From assembly GCA_025992755.1 (NCBI GenBank), contig DAJPGF010000001.1, positions 442,308 to 506,307 on the forward strand: a stretch of DNA of 64,000 nt, written 5' to 3'. The translations under genes and the position numbers were made by a program. This document shows, piece after piece, positions 4,292 to 26,419 of this stretch. The DNA is from Coriobacteriaceae bacterium. GTDB lineage: Bacteria; Actinomycetota; Coriobacteriia; Coriobacteriales; Coriobacteriaceae. Numbering within the stretch: position 1 is the stretch's first letter; the number at the start of each line of letters is the position of its first letter. The notes under the pieces were generated by a model, which was given only the letters and a program-made list of their open reading frames with translations, searched no databases and had not been told where the DNA came from.

Positions 4292-4354
4292 TTGCGGTGA
4301 AATAGTTCCTATCTGGGGCATCAACCAGCCCATCCAGGAACTATTCCACCGCAA
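4292..4354 (+). terminator. Long hairpin + T-tract. Copy 1 of a repeated terminator-like element.
   Basis: Arms ttgcggtgaaatagttcct (4292-4310) / aggaactattccaccgcaa (4336-4354), followed by ctttgtttttg. It sits directly after the hydrolase stop. The same arms recur at 17462-17524 and 24907-24969. Confidence 0.6.
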
Positions 4355-7930: not shown

Positions 7931-7971
7931 AAGCCCGCTCAGGTGACATTTGTTGCCAGCGCGGGCTTTTG
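7931..7971 (+). terminator. Possible intrinsic terminator after the antiporter gene
   Basis: Stem aagcccgc (7931-7938) / gcgggctt (7961-7968), followed by tttg. The loop is long, so confidence is only moderate. Confidence 0.4.
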
Positions 7972-8084
7972 CTGTTGCGGCGAAATGCTGCCGGCAGCTG
8001 GGGACGTTCCTATTGTGCCGGCACCCTGGGACACTCCTTGGATGTTCCGCATGCGACGGAGGGAACGGATCATTTTGTCGAGGG

Positions 8085-8325
8085 GCGGGCGGCTGTTTCG
8101 GTCCTCGGGGAAACCGCGTCCCGTTTCGAGAGCAGATTCCGGGCCGCAGTTTCCCCGAGGGCCCCATTGGGAAATTGCATCCCAGTCTGAGCGCCGATTC
8201 CGGGCTGCAGTTTCCGCTAGATGCCTCAACCGGAAAGCTCATCCCGTTTAGGTGTTCCAGAGTGGGATGCGGTTTCCGCAGCAGGCCCGTCTGGGAAGCA
8301 ATGGCCCAGAATTCCCATCGCAGCG
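8085..8325. repeat. Tandem array (about 4 units) of the same GGAAAC/GTTTCC hairpin repeat family as 4366-4563
   Basis: Units include gggccgcagtttccccgagggccccattgggaaattgcatccc, gggctgcagtttccgctag...ccggaaagctcatccc and gggatgcggtttccgcagcaggcccgtctgggaagcaatggccc. They are separated by gtttcgag/agtctgag/gtttaggt linkers and share the orientation of the left array. Confidence 0.8.
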
Positions 8326-8378
8326 ATCTGTCGATTGAACGTCGTTGTGTGTTCACGCTATCATGTAAGCTTAAAATT

Positions 8379-8412
8379 GGTTAGCCATGGCAAACGGTTA
8401 GCCTTGGTGAAC
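8379..8412. promoter_or_regulatory. Two tandem GGTTAGCC-containing boxes. Candidate DtxR/IdeR-type metalloregulator operator upstream of feoAB.
   Basis: ggttagccatggcaaac (8379-8395) is followed directly by ggttagccttggtgaac (8396-8412). TTAGCCATGGCAAA is a near-palindrome, and GGTTAGCC matches the centre of the DtxR/IdeR box TTAGGTTAGCCTAACCTAA. It lies just downstream of a TAAAAT -10-like hexamer (8372-8377). Confidence 0.35.
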
Positions 8413-8454
8413 ATAAATACAACGCCCTGTGGGCGCCGGGGGAGGAACGCGGAC

Positions 8455-10815
8455 GTGAGGCTCGATACACTCGAGATTGGAAAGGACGCCGTTGTCGCAT
8501 CGGTGGCATCGGACGATCAGGCACTCCGACAGCATATTTTGGACATGGGCCTAACGCCGGGTACCGAAGTCACCATGATGAAGTACGCCCCCATGGGCGA
8601 CCCGCTCGAGATTCGCCTGCGTGGCTACGAGTTGACACTGCGTAAGGACGATGCCGCTCGCATCGAGCTCGTGGGCATTCACGATACCGATATGGGTCCG
8701 CGCGCTAACGCCGCAATCGGCACGACGGAGCATCCGGCCTTGGGCGAGGGGACGTATTCGCCCCGCGCCGCGAAGACGGCCGTGCCCGAGGGCGCACCGC
8801 TGCATTTTGCCCTCGCCGGCAACCAAAACTGCGGCAAGACCACGCTGTTCAACCAGCTGACGGGCTCCAACCAGCATGTCGGTAACTTTCCCGGTGTGAC
8901 GGTCGACCGCAAAGATGGCACCATCCGCAACCACCCCGAGGCAAGCGTTACCGATCTGCCCGGTATTTACTCCCTGTCGCCGTACACGGGCGAAGAGATT
9001 GTGAGCCGCCAGTTTATCCTGGACGAGCATCCCGATGCCATCATCGACATCATCGATGCCACCAACATCGAGCGCAACCTGTACCTGACGCTGCAGCTCA
9101 TGGAGCTCGACCGCCCCATGGTCATCGCGCTCAACATGATGGACGAGGTGACGGCCAACGGCGGCGCCGTGGATGTCAACCTACTCGAGAGCCTGTTGGG
9201 CGTGCCCGTTGTCCCCATTAGCGCTGCCCGCAACGAGGGTATCGGCGAGCTGGTGGATCATGCCTTGCACGTTGCGCGGTTCCGCGAGCGCCCCGGTCGC
9301 CTGGACTTCTGTGCGCCCGATGGCTCGGACGGCGGTGCACTGCATCGCTGCATCCACGGCATTGCCAACCTGATCGAGGACCATGCCGTGACGGCACACA
9401 TCCCGGTGCGCTTTGCGGCGACCAAGCTGGTTGAGGGCGACGAGCTGGTGACCGAGGCGCTTCACCTGGATCGCAACGAGCTCGACGCTATCGAGCACAT
9501 CATTACCCAGATGGAGGGCGAGGCCGGCACCGACCGCCTGTCCGCGCTGGCCGATATGCGCTTTAGCTTTATCGGCGACGTGTGTGGGCGCTGCGTCGTC
9601 AAGCCGCACGAGAGCCGCGAACACGTGCGCTCCGTCAAGATCGACCGCATCCTGACGGGCCGCTACACGGCCATTCCGGCGTTTCTGGTGATCATGGGCC
9701 TCGTCTTTTGGCTGACGTTTGGCGTGATCGGCGCGGCGTTGCAGGGACTTATGGAGGACGGTATCGCTGCCATCATCGCCTCGGCCGATGCGGGCCTCAA
9801 GGCATTCGGAACCAACGACGTGGTGCGCTCGCTGGCTGTCGACGGCGTGCTGACGGGTGTGGGCAGCGTGCTGACCTTCCTGCCGATTATCGTCGTGCTC
9901 TTTTTGTTCCTTTCCATTCTGGAAGACTCGGGCTACATGGCGCGCGTTGCCTTTGTCATGGATAAAGTGCTGCGCCACTTTGGCCTGTCAGGCCGCAGCT
10001 TCGTGCCCATGCTCGTCGGTTTTGGCTGCACCGTGCCGGCTATCATGTCGACCCGTACGCTCCCATCCGAGCACGACCGCAAGATGACGGTCATGCTCAC
10101 GCCGTTTATGAGCTGCTCGGCCAAGCTGCCGGTCTACGGTCTGCTGTGCGGGGCGTTTTTCCCACAGGCGACGGTTCCCGCCATGGTCTCGCTCTATCTG
10201 ATCGGTATCGTGGTCGGCTGCATCGCGGCTTTGGTGCTCAACCGCACGGCATTTAAGGGCGACCCGGTGCCGTTTATCATGGAGCTTCCCAATTACCGCC
10301 TGCCGAGCGTCAAGACGACGGTGATGCTGGCATGGGATAAGGCCAAGGACTTTATTACCAAGGCTTTTACCATTATCTTTGCCGCTACCGTGGTCATCTG
10401 GTTCCTTCAGACGTTCGACATTCGCTTTAATGTGGTCGCCGATCAGTCGCAGAGTCTACTTGCCGGTCTGGGTAGCATTATCGCGCCGGCGCTGGCGCCG
10501 CTTGGCTTTGGCGACTGGCGTGCATCCACGGCGCTCGTCACCGGACTTATCGCCAAGGAGAGCGTCATCTCGACCCTTACGGTGCTTTTGGGCGCAACGT
10601 CGCCCGCGGCACTGTCGACCATGTTTTCGCCGTTTACCGCTTACGTGTTCCTGGTCTTTACACTGCTGTACCCGCCTTGCGTGGCGGCAATCGGCGCCGT
10701 CAAGAGCGAGCTGGGCGCGCGCTATGCCGTTGCCGTGTTCGCGTTTCAAGTGACGGTCGCCTGGATCGTGGCGTTTGTCGTGCATTCAGCTGGTATATTG
10801 CTGGGGCTGGCTTAG
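8455..10815 (+). CDS. feoB: Ferrous iron transporter, FeoA-FeoB fusion
   Basis: N-terminal FeoA/SH3-like segment (LEIGKDAVVASVASDDQALRQHILDMGLTPGTEVTMMKYAPMGDPLEIRLRGYELTLR). Then the FeoB G-domain (ALAGNQNCGKTTLFNQLTG...VTDLPGIYSL) and a polytopic membrane domain. Start set at GTG 8455 after GGGGGAGGAAC. The track start 8221 lies inside the repeat array. Confidence 0.88.
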   Translation: MRLDTLEIGKDAVVASVASDDQALRQHILDMGLTPGTEVTMMKYAPMGDPLEIRLRGYELTLRKDDAARIELVGIHDTDMGPRANAAIGTTEHPALGEGTYSPRAAKTAVPEGAPLHFALAGNQNCGKTTLFNQLTGSNQHVGNFPGVTVDRKDGTIRNHPEASVTDLPGIYSLSPYTGEEIVSRQFILDEHPDAIIDIIDATNIERNLYLTLQLMELDRPMVIALNMMDEVTANGGAVDVNLLESLLGVPVVPISAARNEGIGELVDHALHVARFRERPGRLDFCAPDGSDGGALHRCIHGIANLIEDHAVTAHIPVRFAATKLVEGDELVTEALHLDRNELDAIEHIITQMEGEAGTDRLSALADMRFSFIGDVCGRCVVKPHESREHVRSVKIDRILTGRYTAIPAFLVIMGLVFWLTFGVIGAALQGLMEDGIAAIIASADAGLKAFGTNDVVRSLAVDGVLTGVGSVLTFLPIIVVLFLFLSILEDSGYMARVAFVMDKVLRHFGLSGRSFVPMLVGFGCTVPAIMSTRTLPSEHDRKMTVMLTPFMSCSAKLPVYGLLCGAFFPQATVPAMVSLYLIGIVVGCIAALVLNRTAFKGDPVPFIMELPNYRLPSVKTTVMLAWDKAKDFITKAFTIIFAATVVIWFLQTFDIRFNVVADQSQSLLAGLGSIIAPALAPLGFGDWRASTALVTGLIAKESVISTLTVLLGATSPAALSTMFSPFTAYVFLVFTLLYPPCVAAIGAVKSELGARYAVAVFAFQVTVAWIVAFVVHSAGILLGLA

Positions 10816-15245: not shown

Positions 15246-16073
15246 GTGAACTTGCGAGAGAACTTCAATGTCTTTCTGGAATCGGGCGATCGGGCGAAGG
15301 AATGCTGGAGTGGCTGCACGATGGCGTTATATATTCCCTTGTTTGTTATGAGCGCGCTTCAACTTGGTGTATCAAACGTTGCAACTGAGCTCGCCTATAT
15401 CAATCCGTCCATTACGCTTGTCTGCACTGTGGTCGCGGCCTTTTTAAACCTGCTTCTATCGAATGTGGCTTTTTCATTTTTTGCCGTCGACCGGTCCAAA
15501 GAGACGGTGCAACCGGCTCGAGCTCCTCAGGTTTATCTCTTGGCCTCGACGGTTCCCCTCCAGATTTCTGGGGCGCTGCTACTTTATTTGGTTCACTTGA
15601 TTTTATCGGTAATTGTAGTCTTTGCCTCGCTTGCGAGCAGTCATCTCGGGGTGTTGTGCTCGCTTGTGGTGGCAGTAATCGTGACGCTTCTTTCCGCGTC
15701 GTTCGTATTCGTGTTGATTGAAGATGCGGACGTGGAGCAGGGGGGACTACGAGGCATTCGGTTTGCACCAGGCTACGTCATGCGTTCGATCGCGGTGCTT
15801 CGTTCCTCCTGGAGAGAAATCGCGCGTCCCGCAACGCTGCTGGTGGCATGGAACCTGGTTGCAAGTTGCGCTATCCAGGTTCTTGTTGGATGGGTAGTTT
15901 CGAGTGCGGCGCTGCCGTCGGCACTTTCAGTGACGGCGCTTGTACATGAGGGACTTTATTATGGGGCGTTTGCCTATATGCTGCTTTTGCTAGTTCATTG
16001 TGCGGTTGCGAGTTGGCTCGAAATTGACGTGCTCATGGGGGTGTCCTTGTGCGTATCCGAGCAGGCGCGATAG
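15246..16073 (+). CDS. Hypothetical polytopic membrane protein
   Basis: 275-aa ORF (GTG start) with about 6 long hydrophobic segments. No recognisable motif. The coding call rests on ORF length and TM-like composition only. Confidence 0.5.
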   Translation: MNLRENFNVFLESGDRAKECWSGCTMALYIPLFVMSALQLGVSNVATELAYINPSITLVCTVVAAFLNLLLSNVAFSFFAVDRSKETVQPARAPQVYLLASTVPLQISGALLLYLVHLILSVIVVFASLASSHLGVLCSLVVAVIVTLLSASFVFVLIEDADVEQGGLRGIRFAPGYVMRSIAVLRSSWREIARPATLLVAWNLVASCAIQVLVGWVVSSAALPSALSVTALVHEGLYYGAFAYMLLLLVHCAVASWLEIDVLMGVSLCVSEQAR

Positions 16074-16247: not shown

Positions 16248-17444
16248 ATGGCTCAGGCAAGACAAGATGGTATCTCACTCAAACAGTGGCTCCCGCTTAT
16301 CGGGCTCGCCTGTTGCGCGTTCGTGTTCAACACATCGGAGTTCATGCCCATCGGCCTTTTGACTGATATTGCCGCATCGTTCTCGCTCACCGAGGCCCAA
16401 GCCGGCATCATGATTTCGGTCTACGCCTGGGGCGTCATGCTGCTGTCGCTGCCACTCATGGTGTTTGCCTCGCGCTTTGAGTTCAAGCGTATGCTGCTCG
16501 GCGTGCTCGCCGTGTTTTCTCTGGGTCAGTTCCTGTCCGCTGTGGCACCGACATATCCCATACTGGTTTGTGCACGCCTGGTGGTCGCCTGTGCGCATGC
16601 CGTGTTCTGGTCAGTCGCCTCGATCATGGCCTCGCGCCTGGTCGACACCCGCCACGGGGCGCTCGCCATCAGCATGATCGCCACGGGCTCGTCCATCGCG
16701 CAGATCTTTGGCCTGCCGATCGGCCGCGCTATCGGCCTGGCCGTGGGCTGGCGCATGACGTTTGCCGTGGTCGGGGCCTTCTCTGCCGCCGCAGTGGTGT
16801 ACCAGGCAGCGGTGTTCCCGGCCATGCCGGCGGGTGAGCGCTTTACCGTTAAGCAGCTGCCCGAGCTGCTCAAGAACCCGTTCCTCCTCGCGCTCTACGC
16901 GGTCACGGTCTTTATGGCGACCGGCTATTACGCAAGCTACAGCTATATCGAGCCCTTCCTGGCGCAGGTCGCTCACGTCGACGCGGGCGCCATCACCATG
17001 ACGCTGACGGCGTTTGGCTGCTCTGGTCTGCTCGGAAGCTGGCTGTTTGGCCGCCTGTTCGATGGGCATCGCTTCCCGTTCTTGGCTATTACGCTCTCCG
17101 GCGTGCCGGTGGCTCTGCTGCTCATGGGTCCGGCCGCATCGTCGCTCGCTGCGGTTCTCGCTGTTTGCGCGCTATGGGGCTGCTGCGCTACGGCCTTCAA
17201 TGTGGCGTTCCAGGCCGAGCTCATCAAGTACACGCCGGCGGACTCGTCGGCTGTCGCCATGTCGATCTTCTCGGGCCTTTTTAATCTCGGTATTGGCACG
17301 GGCACGGCGATTGGTGGCGCCGTGGTGTCGGGCCCGGGCATCGCTTGGATCGGCTACGCGGGCGGCACGATCGCCGTCGTGGGCGTCATCCTCGCCATCA
17401 CCGTGCTGTTCCCGGCCATACGCCGCGCAAAGCCCGTCGCCTAA
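16248..17444 (+). CDS. MFS transporter (sugar-efflux/DHA1-like)
   Basis: 398 aa, 12 TM-like segments, with the MFS loop motif GRAIGLAVGWRMTF. Its last about 20 codons and its terminator are duplicated at 24826-25006. Confidence 0.85.
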   Translation: MAQARQDGISLKQWLPLIGLACCAFVFNTSEFMPIGLLTDIAASFSLTEAQAGIMISVYAWGVMLLSLPLMVFASRFEFKRMLLGVLAVFSLGQFLSAVAPTYPILVCARLVVACAHAVFWSVASIMASRLVDTRHGALAISMIATGSSIAQIFGLPIGRAIGLAVGWRMTFAVVGAFSAAAVVYQAAVFPAMPAGERFTVKQLPELLKNPFLLALYAVTVFMATGYYASYSYIEPFLAQVAHVDAGAITMTLTAFGCSGLLGSWLFGRLFDGHRFPFLAITLSGVPVALLLMGPAASSLAAVLAVCALWGCCATAFNVAFQAELIKYTPADSSAVAMSIFSGLFNLGIGTGTAIGGAVVSGPGIAWIGYAGGTIAVVGVILAITVLFPAIRRAKPVA

Positions 17445-17562
17445 TCACGTCACTTCATCAGTTGCGGTGGAATAGTTCTTGTTTAAGGCCTCTGAAGGCC
17501 CAGGCAGGAACTATTCCACCGCAACTTATTTTGGGGGAGAGGATGCGCGGCGGGCATGCGTA
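17381..17562 (+). repeat. Left direct repeat (MFS 3' end + terminator hairpin + about 40 nt)
   Basis: Manual alignment with 24826-25006. From ccatacgcc to ttattttgggggag (about 125 nt) I count one 1-nt indel and about 6 mismatches. Similarity continues more weakly on both sides. Confidence 0.8.
17462..17524 (+). terminator. Hairpin + T-tract terminator of the MFS gene. Copy 2 of the repeated element.
   Basis: Arms ttgcggtggaatagttc / ggaactattccaccgcaa, followed by cttattttggggg. Confidence 0.6.
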
Positions 17563-17570
17563 TAATAAAA

Positions 17571-17616
17571 CTGAGGCCGACCCGACGTTGCATTGGGACG
17601 ACCTCAGTTTTGTTTT
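17571..17616. terminator. Bidirectional hairpin terminator at the 3' end of the island operon
   Basis: Stem ctgaggccg (17571-17579) / cgacctcag (17599-17607). It is flanked by aaaa on one side and ttttgtttt on the other, so it is followed by a T-run on either strand. Confidence 0.65.
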
Positions 17617-17635
17617 CCGGTTGCTTGTGGCTGGC

Positions 17636-18016
17636 CTACAGCTCATCTTGGGGGACGACGGCTGTAAGTTTTTCGTTTTCAAATACCGCAGCAAGTCCGT
17701 GTTCGGGGTCAAAGCGATAGTTGCACATGAGTGCCGCTTTGCGAGCATCATCGCTTCGAAGTACCACGATGCTGGTCGGAATAACGTATCTAAAGATATT
17801 CGTAACGGGGCTCTCAATCTGATCGCCGTCTCTTTCGAGGCAATAATCTTCGATTGCTTCCTTGCTGCCCTCAACGGTATCCCAGCTTGCAAGCAGGGCG
17901 TCCTTTGCTTCCTTTTGAATGTCGAGGACGTCTTGATCCGTGTCGCACTCGTAATAGACGGGGAGCGAGAAATCCCTACCCCACAGAATCATGTCGTTAG
18001 TCATCAAAGCCGCCAT
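17636..18016 (-). CDS. Small acidic protein in the immunity position (putative nuclease immunity protein)
   Basis: 126 aa (or 122 from the ATG at 18004). Its start overlaps the stop of the nuclease gene (caatggcggctttgATGActaa). No signal peptide or TM. Sequence ...NIFRYVIPTSIVVLRSDD...CNYRFDPEHGLAAVFENEKL. I cannot assign a family by eye. Confidence 0.6.
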   Translation of the reverse strand: MAALMTNDMILWGRDFSLPVYYECDTDQDVLDIQKEAKDALLASWDTVEGSKEAIEDYCLERDGDQIESPVTNIFRYVIPTSIVVLRSDDARKAALMCNYRFDPEHGLAAVFENEKLTAVVPQDEL

Positions 18017-18701
18017 TCTGGTTCAGTGCCTTCTTGATTTCACTTACGCCGCCGAGATGCCTACATGTCTCGTGCGCGAGGGTCGGGACAAGAGAGCACG
18101 TCTTCATATCATTATGCTCGTTCCAGGTGCACCCATTTGCCTCGCGCCATTTCCTGACGCCCTGGGGCGTCCAATCATCTTTGCCGTCACGTCGCTCGTG
18201 GTTCCAAACTTTTGCGCATTCAATGTCTGCCTTTTCATAGTTACCGACAATGCGCTCGCCATTTTCGCCTATCAGCGAAAGCCTATGCTGGCTCATACCT
18301 TGTATGGTTACCTTTGTTTCGGCGATGGGGCTGAAGTCAGGAATAGCATCTTTGTAGTTGATGCCCTCAACACCCTTACTTTGAAGAAGCTCACGAAGTC
18401 TGTCATCCGTGGGGACAAACATCGATTCCCCTCGGTCGCCCGACCATTCGCCATGAGAATTCTCCGTAGTTGGAGTACGGTCCAGCCGCTCCTTATAAGT
18501 CGAAGGATAGTCGCACGATTCCACCGAAGGCTTAATCAATTTGTCGGGATCAAGGGATTCATTACGGCCGACATTCTTAATCTCGGCCTTGGCTTCTTTT
18601 GATTCGGAACCAATAAGCTTGTCGGGATTAAACCCATGATTATCACTCGGCTTTGCTTCGCCGGCTTTCATTTGCCTGAGCTCCACTAGCTCACCTCGCA
18701 A
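17997..18701 (-). CDS. HNH/EndoVII-fold nuclease toxin-like protein (GH-E/WHH-like C-terminal domain)
   Basis: C-terminal GCTWNEHNDMKTCSLVPTLAHETCRHLGG (18048-18134) resembles the W-H-H ... LVP...H....H.GG signature of polymorphic-toxin HNH/EndoVII nucleases. Upstream is GEWSGDRGESMFVP...GINYKDAIPDFSP. Start is ambiguous: TTG 18701, GTG 18686 overlapping the upstream TAG, or ATG 18671. Confidence 0.65.
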   Translation of the reverse strand: MRGELVELRQMKAGEAKPSDNHGFNPDKLIGSESKEAKAEIKNVGRNESLDPDKLIKPSVESCDYPSTYKERLDRTPTTENSHGEWSGDRGESMFVPTDDRLRELLQSKGVEGINYKDAIPDFSPIAETKVTIQGMSQHRLSLIGENGERIVGNYEKADIECAKVWNHERRDGKDDWTPQGVRKWREANGCTWNEHNDMKTCSLVPTLAHETCRHLGGVSEIKKALNQNGGFDD

Positions 18702-21700
18702 TTCTCGTTCCAGTTGCGCCAGTCGTCATATGACTTTGAATCTTGCATTTGCAGGTACAGGATGTCTGTCATGATGCCCTGGATGATGACTCGCCTGGTG
18801 CGGTTGTCGATTTCGCGGTTGATGGAAGCCCCGAGCGCCGCTTCTGCCGCTCTTGTCAATTGCTCGGCTTCATTGCTGCTCTTGAGCTCACGTTCGACCG
18901 TTTTGACGACATCGGGGAACAGTGCGCTCATAATGGGCGCCAGCTTGGTCATGTGCGGTTCGTTAGGCGGGTTTTGGGCGGTGCGCAGAATACTGACCTT
19001 TGTGGACGCGCCGATATGGAGGCGATCGAGCCGTTCGCGAATGCTATGCAGTTCCGCCTCAGTTCCAATGCTGATGCCGTATGCCAACATGCGCGCTACG
19101 GAAAGAGCGTCATCGTGTTGGTTGTCTGTGGTGTCTTCGATGGGGCGGCTGTATGTAAAGTGCTCGCCATCCTCTGCTTTGGCGATCTTGCAGAGCACCG
19201 GCTCAACCCAATCGTTTTGGTAAATGGCCGCAACGCCCTTAGGCAAGCGTGCCAGCTCGACGATTTGTTGGTCGTTGAGGTTGGCAGCGCGACCGGCGAG
19301 CTCGCGGTCCGAAAGATCGGGCAGGCGATGGATGATCTTGGTATTTGTGTTGCGAATGGCTGCCATATCGAGAAGTCCGGGTGCTTGGTCGGCGATGATG
19401 AAGCCTTCGCCGTATGTACGCATCTCGGCGATGGCATTTGAGATCATCTCGACGCTCTTGCCTGTCAGGTCGCCGCTCTCCGAGCCTTGGCTGCTCGACG
19501 ATCGCTTAAGCAGGTTGTGCGCCTCTTCAAGCACGGTCAGATGGCGAAGCGGCTGGTTCATGCCCTTTTTCTCGGCCATGCGATGTTCTTGAAGTTTGAG
19601 TACAAGAAGACCCATGAGTAGGGATTTTGTTTCGGCGGAGCCAATGCGCGATAGATCGATGACTGTGTTGGCGTCAAAAAGCACGCTAGCATCGACTTCG
19701 TTCGACGAAAGCATCATGCCGTTGAGCCCGTTGGTGAGCGAGTTGAGACGCGTGAGCAGCGACCCCTTGTAGGCGCCCTTATTTTCGGCATCGTACTCGC
19801 TGGAGTCGAGAATCTCGCGGACGTTACGGGCAACATCTGCAAAGCAGGGAAAGAGATCGGCTCCATACGGGTTATCAGAAGCGGCAAGATCCCATCCGCA
19901 GTCTTCGTATGACCTGGCGACAGCGTCTTTAAGGACGGCGGGCATGGCGGCGTACATGGGCCAGCAAACATTAAAGATCTCAACGAGTCGGTCGAGGTGC
20001 TCCAGCACATGGATGCCGGACGGGAAGCTAAAAGGATTGATGCGCAGGAGCGGCGTGAATTCTGGATTGGTTCCAAAGACGTTTACGTCTTCGCGGCCCC
20101 CGTACACGTCCTTGTATTCGCCCTTGGCAGGTTCAATGACAAGAAAGTTGACCTGCTGATCGAGCGCCTGATCGAGGATGCGGCAGACGGTATTGGTCTT
20201 TCCTGCGCCGGTGCTGCCCGTAACAAAGGTGTGCGAGGCGAGCGAGTCTTTTGACAGGAACGTCCTAATGCGCTCCTCGCGATGCATATGGAAAACCTTG
20301 CCTATGCAAAGGCCTTGCTGGGGCTGCGTGCCATCGAACGTTGAGACATTGCGTCCAAAAGACGCACACTCGATAACGGGCAGCCCTGGGACGGATTTCT
20401 TGGGAAAGTTGAGCGAGTAGGCCAGCTCCTTGCCCGAAAGGGCAGTTGTTGCATCGACCGTTGCTGGGTAAACCGAAAAACTTGGATGTTGATCGAGCAG
20501 GGCGGGGGAGAGGGCAAAAGCAGGATGGCGCAAATCGCGAAGGTAGGAGCAGATTGCCGCGGCGTCGGCGCTTTGCTCTCCAAGGTCTCCGCGCCAGAGG
20601 TTTACTGCCGCCTGAGACATATAGGACTCTTTGCCCTGGGTGAGGGCGAGGTAGGTGTGGGCAACGTTGTTCGCGACGTTGTGGTCTTCTGATAGCACGT
20701 AGGCGCAAAAGTCCCACATGCCGAGTGCCGAGGCAAGGTCGTAGCGCTTCATTTGCAACTCGAGTATTTCGAGCGCGTGTTGGATGGAGTAATTCTTGAA
20801 CGTCTGTGTGATGCCTTCGTCGGCGCCGATGGTAGCGGTGACCGTGCTTGAGCGTGCGAACGATCCGCCAAAGTTGGCACCTAGATTTACTGCCTGTGAA
20901 ACACCGGAAGTCACGGAAGCTCCCTTAGAGACAGCCTTGCCAACACCGCTGGCGACGGCTTTGCCGAGTGAGTTTGATATGGCCTTGCCGGTAGATGAGC
21001 TCGTACCTTTTGCTGTAGACGTGGAGTGCGACGAGCCCTCGGAGTGGCTTGCGGATACGCTTAAGTCAACGCCTCCGCTCGAGGATTCATTTCTGCCGTC
21101 GGTGACCGTATCCGTGATGCTTTCGGTCGATGTGGACGAGTCGGTTACGCTCTCGTTGCTCGATTCCGAGGTCGACTCGTTTGTCGAGTCCGTTTCGTTG
21201 TAGTTTTGAGCAACAGCCTGATTGCCCCCCACCTGCCTGCCGGCACTCACGCCTGCATTGATGCCAATCGTCGCGGACGATCCGATGGAGTCGTTTTGGT
21301 GGTAGGTATAGTTGGTCGTCCATGAGGCATAGGGCGTCAGCAGTGAGTGGAGTTCAGCGAGACGGAGCTTGCGCGATTCGATATCGTAAATCGGGGTTGC
21401 GAGCAGCACGATAGTGTAGTCTTCGCTCGGCCTGCCAGGCACAATGCCGTCAAGAACTTTCTCAATGGTTTGCGTGACGAACTTCTCGTTCTTTTCGGCC
21501 GGAATATTCGAAACGGCGGCAACCGAAGACGAGCGTCGATTGTCTAGACACGGAATGGGGCCGCGGTTGGCGGGTCCCACTTCGGAACCGGGGAAGTTGC
21601 CCCTCAGGGCATCCGACATGCGCCGGGAAAAATTATCGGCGTCGATGTTGTCATGGGCATTGTCGCTGTTGACGACTGCGAGAAATACCTCGGTGCTTAC

Positions 21701-22117
21701 GCTAGTTCGATTAAAAACCAGCGCAATGTTGCAGTCTTCGTCAGAAAGAACGTCGTACACATTTACGAGCTTCTCGAGACTGTCCTCGTTGGGGTCGACG
21801 ATCCACTTCGTGATATTCATGAAGCGGATGTTGTTGTCGGCGTTAAAGCCCGTGGGGTATTCGATAGAGGGGTCAATCGGTGCGTATACATTTCGCAGTT
21901 GCGGCAGATAGGCGTTGTGAAGCTCAACGGCGGCAGTTGCCAAGAGCCGATTGGTGAGCTCGACAGCTTGCTCGTCTGCCGGATTCGGCTTTTCCGACAA
22001 GTATGCTGTTCGCTTTTTGTCGACCTCATCGAGTTGGGAGCTGCTGAGTACCGAGACGGTTGCGACCGCGTTGCCGGCTTTATCGGCAGCGCGCATAATC
22101 GCGTTTTTGATGCCCAT
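18686..22117 (-). CDS. Large HerA/FtsK-superfamily (DUF87-type) P-loop ATPase with an unknown N-terminal domain and a Ser/Thr/Gly-rich tract
   Basis: 1143 aa. Walker A FVTGSTGAGKT (20195-20218), LVIEPAKGEY shortly after, and Walker B LTVLEEAH (19517-19540), as in HerA/VirB4-like ATPases. Residues about 306-430 are low-complexity S/T/G. RBS GGAAGGAA precedes ATG 22117. Confidence 0.75.
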   Translation of the reverse strand: MGIKNAIMRAADKAGNAVATVSVLSSSQLDEVDKKRTAYLSEKPNPADEQAVELTNRLLATAAVELHNAYLPQLRNVYAPIDPSIEYPTGFNADNNIRFMNITKWIVDPNEDSLEKLVNVYDVLSDEDCNIALVFNRTSVSTEVFLAVVNSDNAHDNIDADNFSRRMSDALRGNFPGSEVGPANRGPIPCLDNRRSSSVAAVSNIPAEKNEKFVTQTIEKVLDGIVPGRPSEDYTIVLLATPIYDIESRKLRLAELHSLLTPYASWTTNYTYHQNDSIGSSATIGINAGVSAGRQVGGNQAVAQNYNETDSTNESTSESSNESVTDSSTSTESITDTVTDGRNESSSGGVDLSVSASHSEGSSHSTSTAKGTSSSTGKAISNSLGKAVASGVGKAVSKGASVTSGVSQAVNLGANFGGSFARSSTVTATIGADEGITQTFKNYSIQHALEILELQMKRYDLASALGMWDFCAYVLSEDHNVANNVAHTYLALTQGKESYMSQAAVNLWRGDLGEQSADAAAICSYLRDLRHPAFALSPALLDQHPSFSVYPATVDATTALSGKELAYSLNFPKKSVPGLPVIECASFGRNVSTFDGTQPQQGLCIGKVFHMHREERIRTFLSKDSLASHTFVTGSTGAGKTNTVCRILDQALDQQVNFLVIEPAKGEYKDVYGGREDVNVFGTNPEFTPLLRINPFSFPSGIHVLEHLDRLVEIFNVCWPMYAAMPAVLKDAVARSYEDCGWDLAASDNPYGADLFPCFADVARNVREILDSSEYDAENKGAYKGSLLTRLNSLTNGLNGMMLSSNEVDASVLFDANTVIDLSRIGSAETKSLLMGLLVLKLQEHRMAEKKGMNQPLRHLTVLEEAHNLLKRSSSSQGSESGDLTGKSVEMISNAIAEMRTYGEGFIIADQAPGLLDMAAIRNTNTKIIHRLPDLSDRELAGRAANLNDQQIVELARLPKGVAAIYQNDWVEPVLCKIAKAEDGEHFTYSRPIEDTTDNQHDDALSVARMLAYGISIGTEAELHSIRERLDRLHIGASTKVSILRTAQNPPNEPHMTKLAPIMSALFPDVVKTVERELKSSNEAEQLTRAAEAALGASINREIDNRTRRVIIQGIMTDILYLQMQDSKSYDDWRNWNENCEVS

Positions 22118-22126
22118 GCGATCAGC

Positions 22127-24496
22127 CTATTCCTTCCAATTAATGACGCGCGCAATGTACTCTTTTCGATTATTGAGCGTCTCGAGTTTTGCCTCGAGAG
22201 TGTTGATCTCCGCGGTTTGCCTGTTGATGTCTTCGACATGGCCATGGAGCACCGGGTTGTAGTCGGTGATATTGCTCGTAATTTGGCTGAGCAACTCGTT
22301 GAGCCATTCGGTAAAGCCGTAGGTATGCTCGCGCTCTATTTCGGCGCGTGCTTCGCAGAAACACCGTGAGATTTCGCGGTTGAATTTGTCTTCGACTTTC
22401 CTAAGCAAAAGCTTGTCAGATTTAAAGATGACACGGTCCATGAGCTTCAGTTCGGTAAAGTCTGCCTTGCTGAAAATAGGGCCCTTTGTCTTATCGAGCG
22501 CGAGGCCACGATATTTAAGAATGATATCGCCGACCTCTTGGCGCTTCTCTTCGGAAAGAGGATTGTCGCTGCTGGTGGCGATGCGATAGAGGGCATCGCG
22601 GCTATGCTCCGCACAGTCCTTCCAATAGCTTTGCGACAGCTCATCGATGGTCTGAGCTATTTGCTCGGTACATTCGTCATAGTGATTGATGACCTCGTTA
22701 AAGAGTTGGTCGGCGGCATCTTTGTCGGCTGTTCTTTCGGCAGCCTTTGCGTCGGATCTTTTTTGGAGCGCATCGGTGATGTCATCACAAAGGCCTTTGC
22801 CAACCTCCGCTAACCCAAATGTTGGCTGGGAGTCGACGTCCTTTTGCGTGTTGGCCGGGCTTCCTTTTATCGATTCGCCGAGCCTATTGAAAAAGTTAGG
22901 GGCGATTGAGTCAAACGCTTGCGCGGCTGCGTTCGACCGTTTTGAGTATTCGAGGCGCTCTCGCTTGTCTTCGGTAATGGCGCCTTGACGCGCCTGAAGC
23001 GTGTCAAGGTTGGTTTTCCACTGCTCGGCGGAAACGTTCCCGTCAATGGCGCCGGCATAGCTGGCCGAGGAGTCCAGCCTCGCATGCTCTCTGCAGTCTT
23101 CGAGCTGGTTGATGAGATTGCGCTTATCCTCTTCGAGCTCGGCTTCTCGCTGTGCTTTCTTTTGTTCGAGGTCGGTTTTCTTATCGGCAATCTCTTCTTC
23201 GGTTATGCTGACAATTTCTTGTAGGAGCGATTCCGACCTGCTGCATTTGTTGTAGGCAGAGTACCGCTCGGCAAACAGCCGTATTTCATTTTCGATACAA
23301 AAGAGTCCGCTGTTGGCAAGAAGGAGGTCCTTGCAAGCCTCGGATTCGCGGTTGGTTCTGCGCGAGATCTGTCCCGGAAGGATGTCGTAGCGGTAGAGCG
23401 TTTTGTAGAAGCGGCTTGTCGGATCTGTGTATTTACGCTGCTGATCTTCGAATTTTTCGGCATAGTTGTCGCTTATAAACTCGCTGGAGTTCTTTGAGCC
23501 TAGGCCGAGGATGGAAGAAACAAAGTAGATACCTTGACCGTAAAGGCTGGCTGGAATGGACCAACGCATGATTTGCGAGACGGCTTCATCGTCGAATCCT
23601 CCTTTGGGAAGGTCGGCGGAATCTGCTTTGTTGACTACGATCATGGCAAAGCGTTCATCGATTGCGGGAATCTGCTCTATTTCGTTGGAGAGGTTCTTGT
23701 TGTCCTTCGTATCGAGCGAGTTGTACTCTGCAACGAAAATGGGAAGGCCATTCGAGAGGCCCTCCATTGCCTGTTTGAGCACTCGGGCGTGATCGGCGTT
23801 GGAGGCGGAGTTTGAGCCCGGGGTGTCAAAGATGACAAACTCCCTATCATGGGGCCATGGATCGGTATCGCTAAAGGGCACCTCGATTCTGATCAGATCG
23901 GAGATGGTCTGGTCGTCTTCATCGGCATGGTATGAGTTAAGAACCTTGAGGGCACTGTTCATATGGGAGGCCATGCCGGGCATGGAGTCGGCCACTTTGG
24001 CCGCGATCTTGTCGTATAGGGGCTCCCCCATAAGCTCTTTGTTTTCCATGAGGCCATCAAGATCAAAACGTAGCAAGAATCGCCTGTTGCCACAGGAGAA
24101 TTGAACCATTGCGCGGTCTCGGTCTTTTGAACGTTTGATTTGAAATATGCGGGCCGTTACAGGCTCGTCGCCGCTGGGAAGGATCTCCATGCCGATGAGG
24201 GCGTTGATGAGCGTTGATTTGCCTGCGCTATAGCTGCCGAGCACACACAGCGGGATGATGTCGCTCGAGACATCGGTGAACTTCCTAATTTGCTCAGAAA
24301 CTTTTGTTCGCTCGGAGACTGATTCGTCTACAAGCCACTGGATTTCTCTGAAAACTTCGACAATCTCCGGCAAGACGTCTCGGGCGTTTGATAGATAACG
24401 CTCGTCTCGCATAGCCTCGTATGTGTTGGCGCGTGGTCCTTCGGTACAGATGGCGAGCAGCTCCTGCCATTCGTCATCCGCGCCTTCAAAATGCAA
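22127..24496 (-). CDS. Dynamin-like GTPase (bacterial dynamin family) with a long coiled-coil C-terminal half
   Basis: G1 GSYSAGKST (24212-24238), G3 DTPG (23816-23827), G4 NKAD (23621-23632). The C-terminal about 450 aa is charge-rich and helical. The track start is a TTG. The frame stays open upstream to 24637, and a good ATG/N-terminus lies in another frame (see 24544-24711). Confidence 0.75.
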   Translation of the reverse strand: MHFEGADDEWQELLAICTEGPRANTYEAMRDERYLSNARDVLPEIVEVFREIQWLVDESVSERTKVSEQIRKFTDVSSDIIPLCVLGSYSAGKSTLINALIGMEILPSGDEPVTARIFQIKRSKDRDRAMVQFSCGNRRFLLRFDLDGLMENKELMGEPLYDKIAAKVADSMPGMASHMNSALKVLNSYHADEDDQTISDLIRIEVPFSDTDPWPHDREFVIFDTPGSNSASNADHARVLKQAMEGLSNGLPIFVAEYNSLDTKDNKNLSNEIEQIPAIDERFAMIVVNKADSADLPKGGFDDEAVSQIMRWSIPASLYGQGIYFVSSILGLGSKNSSEFISDNYAEKFEDQQRKYTDPTSRFYKTLYRYDILPGQISRRTNRESEACKDLLLANSGLFCIENEIRLFAERYSAYNKCSRSESLLQEIVSITEEEIADKKTDLEQKKAQREAELEEDKRNLINQLEDCREHARLDSSASYAGAIDGNVSAEQWKTNLDTLQARQGAITEDKRERLEYSKRSNAAAQAFDSIAPNFFNRLGESIKGSPANTQKDVDSQPTFGLAEVGKGLCDDITDALQKRSDAKAAERTADKDAADQLFNEVINHYDECTEQIAQTIDELSQSYWKDCAEHSRDALYRIATSSDNPLSEEKRQEVGDIILKYRGLALDKTKGPIFSKADFTELKLMDRVIFKSDKLLLRKVEDKFNREISRCFCEARAEIEREHTYGFTEWLNELLSQITSNITDYNPVLHGHVEDINRQTAEINTLEAKLETLNNRKEYIARVINWKE

Positions 24497-24543
24497 TTCG
24501 ATTTTGTCGCCGCCGCCGCCGAACTCTTTGGCGAGGATGTCGA

Positions 24544-24711
24544 TTATTTCTTCGGCCTTAAAGGGGAAGAATCCCTTAACGATCTTCGTGCTATGGATGC
24601 ACTGTTGGGATTTGTGGAGGTTGTTATTTCTTGCCAGCCGTTATCCCATCGGAAGAACCGGACAATTTCTTGATATGGATTGCTGACGATCTTGATTTTA
24701 ATGTCTGCCAT
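24544..24711 (-). CDS. 55-codon ORF, probably the displaced 5' end of the dynamin-like gene (frameshift) rather than an independent gene
   Basis: ATG 24711 (AAAGGTAG upstream) gives MADIKIKIVSNPYQEIVRFFRWDNGWQEITTSTNPNSA..., then degenerates. The dynamin frame reads naturally from ...HSTKIVKGFFPFKAEEIIDILAKEFGGGGDKIELHFEG. The two join at about 24595-24602 if one base is restored. Confidence 0.35.
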   Translation of the reverse strand: MADIKIKIVSNPYQEIVRFFRWDNGWQEITTSTNPNSASIARRSLRDSSPLRPKK

Positions 24712-24825
24712 CGTTCAACTACCTTTAGTAGATAAGGTGCGGGAATATGCCGCCTTTATCATAGGGTAGCTGCCCGTGCGGACACCCCTCTATTCGCTCA
24801 GCGGCATCTCGGCAGTACCATTTAT

Positions 24826-25006
24826 TTGGCAAGATCCTCGCCACCGCCGTAATGTTCCCAGCCATACGCCGGCAAAGCCCGTCGCCTAATCACGTCCCCT
24901 CATCAGTTGCGGTGGAATAGTTCCTGTTTAAGGCCTCTGAATGCCCAAGCAGGAACTATTCCACCGCAACTTATTTTGGGGGAGGGGATGCATGCTGGGC
25001 ATACAA
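24826..25006 (+). repeat. Right direct repeat, including a decayed, frameshifted copy of the MFS 3' end
   Basis: ggcaagatcctcgccaccgccgtaatgttcccagccatacgccg-gcaaagcccgtcgcctaa reads GKILATAVMFPAIRR, against GVILAITVLFPAIRRAKPVA* in the intact gene. The hairpin and downstream sequence are then nearly identical to 17445-17562. Confidence 0.8.
24907..24969 (+). terminator. Copy 3 of the repeated hairpin + T-tract element
   Basis: Arms ttgcggtggaatagttcc / ggaactattccaccgcaa, followed by cttattttggggg. Confidence 0.5.
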
Positions 25007-25042: not shown

Positions 25043-26419
25043 ATGTGGGCATACGAGACGACGTTCTATCAGATCTATCCGCTGGGCTTTTGCGGGGCTC
25101 CGCGCGAAAACGCCGCACCCGTTGCCGAGGACGAACTCTCCCAAACTGCCGGCACTGCAGCCAACCCCAATGCCCCCATCATGAAAATCGCCCAATGGGC
25201 CGACTACTTGCAAAAACTTGGTATTGGCGCTGTACTGATCAACCCACCGCTCGAATCCGATAGCCACGGCTACGATACGCGCAGCCTGTGCCATATCGAC
25301 CGTCGCCTGGGTGGGGATGCCGATTTTGCCGCCGTGTGCGAGACACTGCATGCCCACGGCATTCGCGTGGTGCTCGATGCCGTCTTTAACCATGTGGGCC
25401 GTGGCTTTTGGGCCTTCCGCGATGTGCAGGAACGCAAGTGGGACTCGCCCTACAAGGACTGGTTTCACATCAGTTTTGACGGCGACTCGTGCTACGGCGA
25501 CGGCTTTTGGTACGAGGGCTGGGAAGGCCATTTTGAGCTTGTGAAGCTCAACCTGCAAAATCCCGCTGTGGTCGATTACCTGCTCGAGTCCGTGCGCCGT
25601 TGGGCCGACGTCTTTGGCGTCGACGGTCTGCGCCTGGACGTTGCCTATATGCTCGACCGCGACTTTATGCGCCGGCTGCACGCCTTTACCCGTGAGCTCA
25701 AGCCCGGCTTTGTACTGATTGGTGAGACGCTCCACGGCGACTACAACCAGATCGTCAACGACGAGATGCTCGACTCCTGCACCAACTACGAGTGCTACAA
25801 GGGCCTGTACTCCAGCTTTAACTCGGTCAACATGTTCGAGATCGCGCACTCGCTGCACCGTCAGTTTGGCGGCGACCCCTGGTGCATCTACCGCGGCAAG
25901 CACCTGCTGTCGTTTGTCGACAACCACGACGTGCCGCGCCTGGCAAGCATCCTTACCGACAAGTCGTGCCTGCGTCCCGCCTATGGCATGCTCTTTGGCA
26001 TGCCGGGCATTCCGTGCGTCTACTATGGCAGCGAGTGGGGGATTGCTGGCGAAAAGGGCGGCCCCGATGGCGACTGGGCGCTGCGCCCTGCGCTCGATGA
26101 GCCTGCGCCCAATGAGCTGACGGCGTTTGTCACGCAGCTCGCGCACCTGCGCTCGGCCGACGACGCGGCGGCCCGTGCTCTCAACTACGGTGCCTATCGC
26201 AACGTGGTGATCCAGAACAAGCAGCTGCTGTTCGAGCGCGCCTGTGACGGCGCGACGGTACTCGTGGCGGTCAATGCTGTGAACGAGCCCTATACCTTTG
26301 GAGCCGGTGAACTCAACGGCTCCTTCGTCGACCTGCTTGCCGACGATGCGCCCACGATCGAGCTGACGGGTACCCTTGAGCTTGCGCCCTACGAGGTGCG
26401 CTATCTGTTGAGGGTCTAG
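25043..26419 (+). CDS. Glycoside hydrolase family 13 (alpha-amylase catalytic-domain protein)
   Basis: All four GH13 conserved regions are present: VVLDAVFNHVG, GVDGLRLDVAY, LIGETLHGDY, FVDNHDVPR. RBS GGGAGG lies before ATG 25043. Confidence 0.88.
   Translation: MWAYETTFYQIYPLGFCGAPRENAAPVAEDELSQTAGTAANPNAPIMKIAQWADYLQKLGIGAVLINPPLESDSHGYDTRSLCHIDRRLGGDADFAAVCETLHAHGIRVVLDAVFNHVGRGFWAFRDVQERKWDSPYKDWFHISFDGDSCYGDGFWYEGWEGHFELVKLNLQNPAVVDYLLESVRRWADVFGVDGLRLDVAYMLDRDFMRRLHAFTRELKPGFVLIGETLHGDYNQIVNDEMLDSCTNYECYKGLYSSFNSVNMFEIAHSLHRQFGGDPWCIYRGKHLLSFVDNHDVPRLASILTDKSCLRPAYGMLFGMPGIPCVYYGSEWGIAGEKGGPDGDWALRPALDEPAPNELTAFVTQLAHLRSADDAAARALNYGAYRNVVIQNKQLLFERACDGATVLVAVNAVNEPYTFGAGELNGSFVDLLADDAPTIELTGTLELAPYEVRYLLRV

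Follow-up and report, generated by a model that had tools for sequence, protein, structure and literature searches.

An accessory four-gene cassette framed by a duplicated gene end in a Coriobacteriaceae genome: insertion site, cargo and likely mode of spread

In a stretch of 64,000 nucleotides from the genome of a Coriobacteriaceae bacterium (GenBank assembly GCA_025992755.1, contig DAJPGF010000001.1, positions 442,308 to 506,307; hereafter, the window), four genes on the minus strand separate a gene for a sugar transporter of the major facilitator superfamily (MFS) from a gene of the alpha-amylase family GH13. This four-gene segment, which we call the island, is framed by two imperfect copies of the 3' end of the MFS gene, each followed by a hairpin. 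How did a segment carrying no recombinase gene come to lie between two such repeats, and by what means is it passed on? The answer that we consider probable is that the island is a non-autonomous cassette, inserted a single time and long ago at the MFS 3' end, which now exists as a presence/absence polymorphism shuffled by homologous recombination. Below, we present the evidence for this scenario and weigh it against three others; the coordinates of all the features are collected in Table 1.

Insertion site and limits of the island

A scan of species-representative genomes with the MFS protein yielded 80 loci, nearly all labelled Collinsella or Coriobacteriaceae/Atopobiaceae and of gut origin, with MFS orthologues at 95-98% amino acid identity. 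Seventy-eight of these loci reached far enough to be informative. In 76 of the 78, the MFS stop codon is followed by the GH13 start codon after approximately 80-185 nt, and the segment that is duplicated in the window is present in a single copy. The four genes were found in the two remaining loci only (L043 and L046), at the same place as in the window. The 7,276-nt segment is an accessory insertion, and the arrangement of its relatives (MFS gene, one repeat copy, GH13 gene) is the one that an earlier note on this DNA had predicted for an empty site.

Alignment of empty and occupied sites places the left junction at ...GGGCAT|GCGTATAAT... (17557|17558; the island side, as defined against the empty sites, is also given as GGGCAT|GCGTATAA) and the right junction at ...CATTTATTTGGCAAG|ATCCTCGCC... 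(24833|24834). A further scan, this time of metagenomes with the dynamin-like protein of the island, returned 40 loci, some 27 of which are close copies; all those reaching a flank sit between MFS and GH13 with the same junctions. Constancy of the junctions was thus seen in 25 right junctions and 19 complete left copies, every one of them between these two genes. One metagenome locus, L093, was considered as another insertion context, with low-GC ribosomal-protein genes (S5, L18, L6 and S8) abutting the start of the dynamin-like gene (approximately 7940-10119). We rejected this candidate, as the contig is most likely a chimeric metagenome assembly joined around the start codon.

The limits of the insertion coincide exactly with the limits of the direct repeats, as delineated by a repeat finder and a global alignment. 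The two copies are identical at 154 of 169 aligned positions (91.1%), with 15 mismatches and one 1-nt indel, and beyond their ends the sequences of both sides are unrelated. Each copy comprises the final 19 MFS codons with the stop, a spacer of about 12 nt, a palindrome of about 70 nt and approximately 30 nt ending in GGGCAT. The earlier note had recognised this repeat, although its real limits lie 7-8 nt (left) and 4-5 nt (right) inside those given there. Within the stretch from ccatacgcc to ttattttgggggag (124 and 123 nt in the two copies), the single indel that it reported is there, while the mismatches number five rather than about six. It had also described the coding part of the right copy as diverged and frameshifted. 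This part reads ILATAVMFPAIRRQSPSPN, where the left copy has ILAITVLFPAIRRAKPVA followed by the stop, and its frame is indeed broken by a 1-nt deletion, next to several amino acid changes.

Might these repeats be nothing else than two independent copies of a generic palindromic element, of the kind known as repetitive extragenic palindromes (REP) or miniature inverted-repeat transposable elements (MITE), flanking the operon by chance? The hairpin by itself would allow this. Its stem occurs at three sites within the window, one of them (4292-4354) unrelated to the island, and the type-1 stem was found at 33 further positions in related loci, 4-13 kb upstream of the site; these 33 copies fall at five other positions, and their presence varies by genome. 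The hairpin types in the spacer between MFS and GH13 differ between genomes as well. The hairpin core (about 63-73 nt) is therefore a generic multicopy palindromic element, which does not hold for the 170-nt repeat as a whole. On the left, the repeat reaches 69 nt past the hairpin and takes in 57 nt of MFS coding sequence found nowhere else; on the right, it goes on for approximately 28 nt. Moreover, its ends are the limits set by the 76 empty sites, and right copies devoid of the hairpin keep the coding stub. With 57 nt of unique coding sequence included and ends matching those of the insertion, we treat a chance or palindrome-only origin of the repeat as ruled out and give it next to no credence. 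The search for the repeat core elsewhere, which the earlier note had proposed, thus gave a divided answer: the hairpin is multicopy and the coding stub is not.

The palindrome family deserves a short description of its own. Its members are about 63 nt long, with the stems TTGCGGTGRAATAGTTCC and GGAACTATTCCACCGCAA and a variable loop, and they are dispersed and intergenic; across loci L001-L080, they lie at about -4, -4.5, -6 and -8 kb from the MFS 3' end. Because copies are present in some genomes and absent in others, this pattern suggests a REP/MITE-like mobile or recombinogenic element in Collinsella. Rfam gave no RNA family match across the entire window. In the empty sites, the spacer between MFS and GH13 is itself polymorphic: some genomes have the type-1 hairpin there, others a palindrome of a second type or a small third one, and others hardly any sequence. 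With the stub included, the spacer measures 100, 127/128, about 174 or 203 nt.

Base composition adds little. The island has a GC content of 0.534. MFS stands at 0.634, GH13 at 0.609 and the window as a whole at 0.592, and the adjoining 10 kb have values of 0.568 (left) and 0.614 (right). The interior is thus more AT-rich than the two genes that border it, as the earlier note had it, but nearby core genes on the left are similar (0.546 for the GH4 gene and 0.529 for the open reading frame (ORF) at 15246-16073). The GC content at third codon positions (GC3) gives the same impression, being 0.55-0.67 in the island genes, 0.80 in MFS and 0.77 in GH13, with 0.65 and 0.57 in two core genes immediately upstream. 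When a crude set of ORFs from the window, which includes some antisense shadow ORFs and is to be read qualitatively, was compared, the WHH nuclease ORF alone had a GC3 below that of every other long ORF. Overall, the contrast in composition is modest, mildly supportive of an insertion and not decisive.

As for the means of insertion, searches of all four island proteins against Pfam, NCBIfam, PHROGs and PADLOC revealed no recombinase, transposase, excisionase or transfer gene, which agrees with the earlier note's failure to see an integrase, transposase or excisionase, and the limits defined by the empty sites leave no space for a further gene. A repeat scan found no terminal inverted repeats at 17558/24833. 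We consequently rejected a transposon or an insertion sequence (IS), since transposase and terminal inverted repeats are both missing and the duplication measures 170 nt instead of a few base pairs. A Xer/dif-like site at the left junction was set aside: in a comparison made by eye only, one arm was similar and the other had no match.

Table 1. Features of the island and its surroundings in the window (dG, folding free energy; RBS, ribosome-binding site)
Feature	Position	Strand	Details
Third palindromic hairpin copy, unrelated to the island	4292..4354	.	Same stems, other loop; dG -37.8 kcal/mol, z -7.3
MFS sugar-transporter gene	16248..17444	+	398 aa; Pfam MFS_1 E=2e-43; NCBIfam PRK03545 E=1.7e-111
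Left repeat copy, functional	17388..17557	+	170 nt; MFS codons 380-398 and stop, palindromic hairpin, GGGCAT end
Left-copy palindromic hairpin, type hp1	17457..17529	.	Inverted repeat; dG -55 kcal/mol, z -8.5; followed by TTATTTT
Unique island DNA	17558..24833	-	7,276 nt; not in 76 of 78 related genomes
Island operon terminator hairpin, type A	17568..17612	-	Inverted repeat; dG -27.4 kcal/mol, z -6.1; type B copies differ
DUF6985 protein, predicted immunity/antitoxin	17636..18016	-	122-126 aa; Pfam DUF6985 33.7 bits, cutoff 24.5
WHH/colicin-DNase-type HNH-EndoVII nuclease, predicted effector	17997..18701	-	224-234 aa
HerA/FtsK-like P-loop ATPase	18686..22117	-	1143 aa; Pfam DUF87, TrwB_AAD_bind; Ser/Thr-rich linker; N-terminal half of unknown fold
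Dynamin-like GTPase gene	22127..24711	-	Pfam Dynamin_N E=1.9e-18; start ATG 24711; 860 aa in 26 other copies
Island non-coding right end	24712..24833	-	Ends ...CATTTATTTGGCAAG; junction constant in 25 copies; presumed operon promoter and RBS
Right repeat copy, displaced MFS 3'-end relic	24834..25002	+	169 nt; frameshifted stub, hairpin and spacer
Right-copy palindromic hairpin	24902..24974	.	Inverted repeat; dG -63 kcal/mol, z -10.9
GH13 alpha-amylase-family gene, right flank	25043..26419	+	Pfam Alpha-amylase E=1.8e-42; directly after MFS in empty sites

Origin of the two repeat copies

The left copy is the working 3' end of the MFS gene. Frame and stop are kept in all 19 complete left copies, 18 of which end in the peptide ILAITV[LM]FP[AT]IRRAKPVA followed by the stop (the exception, L095, ends in ...PVV and the stop). 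The two commonest C-terminal peptides account for 15 of the 19, and the empty sites share the main forms. The hairpin of this copy is plausibly the terminator of the MFS gene. Right copies depart from the consensus far more often: non-consensus residues were found in 15 of 25, compared with 14 among the 74 empty sites and 4 among the 19 left copies. The stop was lost in one right copy and is missing from five others through a common 48-nt deletion, which occurs in no empty site, and the variant ATCGCCGT, carried by seven right copies, is absent from all 74 empty sites. Several right copies lack the hairpin altogether and still have the coding stub. Because of the stop losses, the non-consensus residues and the variant specific to right copies, the right stub is read as an unconstrained relic, inherited along with the island, and the decay of a displaced copy that the earlier note had proposed from the window fits these counts as well as the frameshift seen there. 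The distal part of the right copy retains the native sequence 5' of GH13.

The left end of the island comes in two forms. In type A, which the window carries, hairpin type 1 is followed by ...CGCGGCGGGCAT|GCGTATAA and one terminator hairpin; in type B, hairpin type 2 and the third palindrome, with its loop inverted, are followed by ...GAGCAT|ACGTAAAAG and another terminator. The hairpin type of the left copy follows the left-end type of the island (11 of 11 type A and 7 of 8 type B copies). On the other side, the right copies comprise 15 with hp1, five short ones, three with hp3 and two with hp2, and these types show no association with the last 122 nt of the island (permutation p = 0.81); different right-copy types were found with identical right-end haplotypes, and the right copy with the 48-nt deletion occurs with both left-end types. 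Such an asymmetry is suggestive of a left 3' end that came with the island and of a distal right copy that is resident DNA, in line with the earlier idea that the element brought a replacement MFS 3' end with it. We call it suggestive rather than decisive because types A and B represent a deep dimorphism, defined by immediately adjacent sequence.

Several observations on these variants may be recorded here. In the type B left copies (L081, L083, L090, L093, L094, L099 and L116), the loop of the third palindrome, GGGTAGCTAA...TTAGCTACC, is inverted relative to the empty sites L026 and L029, which looks like an inversion between the stem arms. The motif CGCGGCG, which marks most type A left copies, also stands just before GGGCAT in seven empty sites (L030, L044, L053, L060, L063, L064 and L075), and these may represent the allele in which the left copy of the island arose. 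In one of them, L075, the hairpin is a hybrid, with a type-2 left half and a type-1 right half. We considered and rejected CGCGGCG as an excision scar: its position is island-proximal, so that a left-by-right deletion would lose it, and in the seven empty sites it is an ordinary allele. An attempt to recognise the native copy through the flank identity of the nearest relatives was uninformative, the flanks being mosaic and the hairpin type independent of flank relatedness.

The following origin of this arrangement can be envisaged. The cassette would have been inserted at the chromosomal MFS 3' end on a single occasion, in the Collinsella aerofaciens species complex. A circular DNA with a homologous MFS-3'/spacer segment may have integrated by a single crossover (Campbell-type), or the event may have been a homology-facilitated illegitimate recombination, anchored in MFS and with its far end joined 57 nt before the stop. 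Both routes would lead to the order MFS, donor segment, cassette, resident segment, GH13, with 170 nt duplicated, and a duplication of this length is not a transposition footprint. The island-linked left copy would then complete the MFS gene and supply its terminator; the right copy would keep the native sequence in front of GH13, and its 57-nt coding stub would now be junk in decay. The insertion probably survived thanks to both neighbouring genes having remained undamaged.

Spread and recombination of the island

Among the island-bearing loci, the dynamin-like and ATPase genes have identities at third codon positions of 0.90 and 0.88, as compared with 0.79 for MFS, 0.82 for GH13 and 0.74 for the next gene, UDG. 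The island is thus old (about 10% silent-site divergence) and yet younger than the host lineages, and, being younger, it has moved horizontally within the species complex. We suppose that, persisting in approximately 3% of species-level genomes, it spread to diverged lineages and is continually reshuffled there by short-tract homologous recombination. The 170-nt repeats, in turn, could be used by host recombination for precise loss of the island and possibly for its re-integration.

Recombination has left clear traces. Similarities of neighbouring 0.5-1-kb segments correlate poorly, with a Spearman r of 0.03-0.58 in the island, 0.16-0.26 in the flanks and -0.08 and 0.22 across the junctions, meaning that linkage is lost within less than 1 kb everywhere. 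There is no hitch-hiking either: over the 240-300 nt next to the junctions, island-bearers resemble one another (0.906 and 0.924) no more than they resemble empty sites (0.908 and 0.922). Individual pairs place the change at differing points. In L097/L098, the last 2.6 kb of the island contain 11 mismatches, none of them in the final 349 nt, and the next 700 nt contain 48, starting at +7; in L043/L046, the change falls in the roughly 80 nt that precede the junction; in L096/L098, eight differences lie in the final 117 nt of the island and one in the first 115 nt of the right copy. In pairs with such recent tracts, near-identity is limited to the right 2.5 kb of the island and does not span the whole unit. 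The A/B block at the left end is unlinked to the neighbouring alleles of the DUF6985 and WHH genes, and no pair with a near-identical left island end and divergent flanks was found among the copies compared. Since the switch from island-linked to host-type sequence lies at positions that differ between copies, with breakpoints also just inside the island, we see no fixed crossover in att-like repeats.

The cassette is not confined to this site. Twelve of the 40 metagenome loci (L102-L112 and L117) form a diverged clade, at 62-67% protein identity, which adjoins glnE in other gut contigs. It has the same four genes with an extra 130-aa ORF after the DUF6985 gene, and downstream lies the gene for a 901-aa protein without a Pfam match (e.g. 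L117, 9743-17386). The cassette is therefore a module that occupies different sites. The glnE clade showed no flanking direct repeat of at least 30 nt, from which it follows that the duplicated gene end is a property of the event at the MFS site and not of the cassette.

These observations bear on a second alternative, in which the island is the remnant of a larger integrase-encoding element at the MFS 3' end, such as a prophage, an integrative conjugative element or an integrative mobilizable element, that would have brought the replacement 3' end in its attP by site-specific recombination and then lost its integrase module through a deletion. Elements with an integrase typically replace the 3' end of the gene that they target, and the precise, constant junctions and the island-linked left copy would agree with such an ancestry; besides, some of the plasmid-borne homologues described below adjoin a recombinase gene or an IS element. 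Yet no extra gene is retained in any of about 30 island copies or in the homologue-bearing contigs of 7.3-7.9 kb, which number more than 100. Att-like repeats are missing from the copy at the glnE site, and the 170 nt of imperfect homology contain no identifiable core, with implied crossovers that differ between copies. We regard this origin as improbable. The earlier note had seen in the locus the logic of a 3'-end-targeting integrative element, and this analogy was not borne out: all close copies occupy a single site, the breakpoints are scattered, the glnE cassette lacks repeats and part of the repeat is multicopy.

A more serious competitor is a mobile island without a recombinase of its own. 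The H47 genomic island of E. coli, which encodes microcin H47, spans 13 kb, has extensive imperfect direct repeats and lacks integrase and excisionase genes (PMC3191183, PMC5426353). Its excision and integration were shown experimentally to be RecA-independent and to take place at four identity segments (PMC3191183, PMC5426353). By analogy, recombination between the imperfect repeats of the Collinsella island would release a circle with a hybrid repeat, whose junction would read island right end ...TTTGGCAAG, one repeat, then GCGTATAA..., and this circle would re-integrate into an empty site by host functions, be it a recombinase acting in trans or RecA-independent repeat recombination. The architecture, with long imperfect direct repeats and no recombinase, matches that of the H47 island. 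The model predicts that the island-proximal parts of both copies travel with the island, the distal part of the right copy being the host's; the linked left and unlinked right hairpins reported above agree with this, as do the variants at positions 10-17, which are specific to right copies and absent from empty sites. So do the flanks without hitch-hiking, the sharp drop at the right junction in L097/L098 and an island younger than its host lineages.

Several observations tell against such mobility. Many ATPase-bearing database contigs measure 7.43-7.46 kb, which equals the repeat spacing, and we considered these Logan contigs as candidate circles. However, the two that were inspected start in the left-copy hairpin, end 100-144 nt past the right junction and show no terminal overlap; they are chromosomal, and the contigs of about 7.45 kb are assembly fragments broken at the repeats. 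No circular or tandem junction was found among the candidates, nor does the island junction sequence occur in viral contigs, where only ATPase homologues at 40-52% identity were met. Recent tracts cover the right 2.5 kb of the island rather than the whole unit, and L096/L098 places breakpoints inside the island and the right copy. The right copy with the 48-nt deletion is shared by both left-end types, and with linkage decaying in less than 1 kb, ordinary homologous recombination can give the same patterns. Overall, we consider H47-like mobility unlikely here, though clearly less so than the loss of an integrase.

Our preferred reading, a single old insertion followed by homologous reshuffling, has weak points of its own. 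A discrete transfer unit of island plus repeat would equally predict three of the observations: the left-copy hairpin type is linked to the island and the right-copy type is not, the flanks of island-bearers sample the diversity of the population at random, all the way to the junctions, and the identity of L097/L098 switches exactly at the right junction. A single simple event also leaves unexplained why two very different left-end blocks, A and B, meet the MFS side at one junction position. Finally, the cassette of the window may be inactive, its dynamin-like gene being frameshifted, and a defence or addiction role for the operon is deduced from domain content and gene context.

Even so, the locus provides a clean and well-populated example of an integrase-less accessory cassette, with 76 empty against about 30 occupied sites and a duplication that spares both neighbouring genes. 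It illustrates how, in a gut commensal that recombines very freely, cassettes of this kind are maintained as presence/absence polymorphisms, and it offers a natural system in which to ask whether recombinase-free mobility of the H47 type exists outside E. coli.

The cargo, its relatives and known systems

The interior of the island had been described in the earlier note as one four-gene operon on the opposite strand, and our annotation agrees: there are four co-oriented minus-strand genes and nothing else recognisable. In the order of transcription, they encode the dynamin-like GTPase, the HerA/FtsK-like ATPase, the WHH nuclease and the DUF6985 protein, the gene for the last overlapping the downstream end of the WHH gene.

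The dynamin-like protein is remotely similar to bacterial dynamin-like protein BDLP (E about 1e-3). In the window, its gene contains a 1-nt deletion near 24597/24598, some 115 nt in, which splits it into a 55-aa ORF (24544-24711) and a 789-aa ORF (22127-24496), and an alignment of 27 copies also revealed an in-frame 3-nt GGC insertion; intact 860-aa genes were called in L121 and L122. Given this frameshift and that of the right stub, the window copy may be decaying, or both may be consensus errors of a metagenome-assembled genome. PADLOC matched LeoBC (E=2e-10 over 134 residues) and LeoA (E=2.2e-5 over 45 residues) on this one protein.

The matches of the ATPase to HerA and mad8 models are all weak (PADLOC E of 1e-17 at best and partial; NCBIfam 23-36 bits against cutoffs of 800-970), and HerA chains in the PDB were matched at E of about 1e-6. 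Its Ser/Thr-rich low-complexity linker (residues approximately 290-430) varies in length, the proteins, P0001-P0120 included, being 1143-1167 aa long, and it breaks nucleotide alignments near island position 3450-3600. Isolates such as Collinsella sp. HCP28S3_E5 and SGI.180 encode this ATPase at 97-98% identity. PHROGs returned nothing useful for the island proteins.

The nuclease was recognised by the Pfam models WHH (41.3 bits, cutoff 25.1) and Colicin-DNase (27.4 bits, cutoff 25). It is highly polymorphic among the Collinsella copies, and the DUF6985 protein is less so. Two allele classes of the nuclease differ at more than 40 of 224 residues, and the DUF6985 alleles do not co-vary with them; the window, for instance, pairs a class-1 nuclease with a class-2-like DUF6985 protein. 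Such a lack of co-variation may be relevant to toxin-immunity matching. No 19-residue window in any of the four proteins reaches a mean Kyte-Doolittle hydropathy of 1.6, so there is no obvious transmembrane segment, and domain scans detected no secretion or trafficking domain in the nuclease. Because of these two absences, we favour an intracellular role: the cargo is most likely an NTPase-controlled nuclease system serving in phage or plasmid defence (abortive infection) or as an addiction module, rather than a secreted toxin. In the literature library that we searched, no paper on this four-gene module or on DUF6985 was found, and in a lactococcal anti-phage paper dynamin appears only within a cited reference.

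The module is not restricted to Collinsella. With tblastn, ATPase homologues at 40-49% identity were detected on plasmids of Treponema, Bacillus, Lactococcus, E. coli, Exiguobacterium and Ruminococcus. Three of these plasmids were viewed, namely pB26B of Lactococcus cremoris (L123), pTW10590_133 of the enterotoxigenic E. coli TW10590 (L124) and p1 of Bacillus sp. PGP15 (L125); they carry one or two dynamin-family genes, small ORFs, the ATPase gene, an HNH/EndoVII nuclease gene and a small last gene, which in E. coli and Bacillus is of the SMI1/KNR4 type. As SMI1/KNR4 proteins are immunity proteins and take the place that DUF6985 has in the island, an immunity role is predicted for the latter. 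The nucleases of the window and the Lactococcus cassette are homologous (35%, E = 4e-29); against a plasmid cassette, the GTPase domain gives 27% identity (E = 1e-10) and the last gene a weak match (E = 0.005). A dynamin-like GTPase partner is present in all the homologous cassettes seen. Taken together, these similarities show a module conserved on plasmids of several phyla, Bacillota and Pseudomonadota among them. The plasmid cassettes have six or seven genes, and their neighbours are an Fst toxin and a recombinase in Lactococcus, an IS66 transposase in E. coli and a WYL-domain regulator in Bacillus. ATPase homologues at 30-52% identity also occur in the "Bacteriophage sp." contigs MT837341.1 and MT836703.1 from human faeces and in five IMG/VR contigs (L126-L130).

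It is tempting to combine these lines and to suppose that the operon is an undescribed cross-phylum conflict or defence system, in which NTPases would control a WHH DNase kept in check by its immunity protein, and that in Collinsella it moves without a recombinase by means of the 170-nt repeat as a handle. We put this joint proposal forward tentatively, as a possibility that we ourselves find rather doubtful. None of this overturns the current understanding. The island is fairly ordinary, and its cargo is uncharacterised yet widespread; being matched only weakly by the defence-system models used, it is a reasonable candidate for defence or addiction assays.

Among described elements, the H47 island is the closest case to the Collinsella island. 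Both are small chromosomal islands (7.3 kb here) with imperfect repeats (here 170 nt at 91%) and no recombination gene, both carry the cargo of a conflict system (a microcin there, a nuclease and an immunity-type protein here), and in both, attachment-like sequences are common in empty genomes. They differ in that the population data on Collinsella are explained by ordinary homologous recombination, with no excision product seen among the candidate contigs, and in the repeat itself, which in Collinsella is a duplicated 3' end of a protein-coding gene with a multicopy palindrome in it. Islands of the integrase type that target 3' ends share with ours the insertion at a gene end, repeats containing the last codons, a gene kept intact by the island-linked copy and a single repeat copy in empty sites. 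Unlike them, the Collinsella island has no recombinase, its repeat is long and imperfect without a core, and the glnE cassette has no repeats at all.

With respect to the cargo, the Eleos system likewise comprises bacterial dynamin-like GTPases, weakly similar to the one described here through LeoBC and LeoA, and it is likewise accessory and found on mobile DNA. However, Eleos is defined as a two-gene system of LeoA and LeoBC, whereas here a single dynamin-like protein matches over short stretches and the operon adds a 1143-aa ATPase, a WHH nuclease and an immunity-type protein; by these features, the cargo is not a member of Eleos. The HerA defence systems (SIR2-HerA and DUF4297-HerA) resemble it in having a HerA/FtsK-type ATPase that adjoins a nuclease effector, and they provide the nearest matches to the ATPase domain. 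These matches are weak and partial (E of 1e-5 to 1e-17), however, and the Collinsella protein is twice as long, with a Ser-rich linker and an N-terminal half of unknown fold. Profile scans of the four proteins found no SIR2, DUF4297 or MADS partner in the island, which instead has a separate immunity-type protein and a dynamin-like partner that is obligate in all the homologous cassettes seen. Finally, pairs of nuclease toxin and immunity protein (WHH/HNH with SUKH/SMI1-KNR4) share with the island a WHH/colicin-DNase gene followed by a small overlapping gene, as well as a polymorphic nuclease. The difference is that the nuclease of the island is small and stands alone within an NTPase operon, with no secretion or trafficking domain, and such a setting suggests intracellular use.

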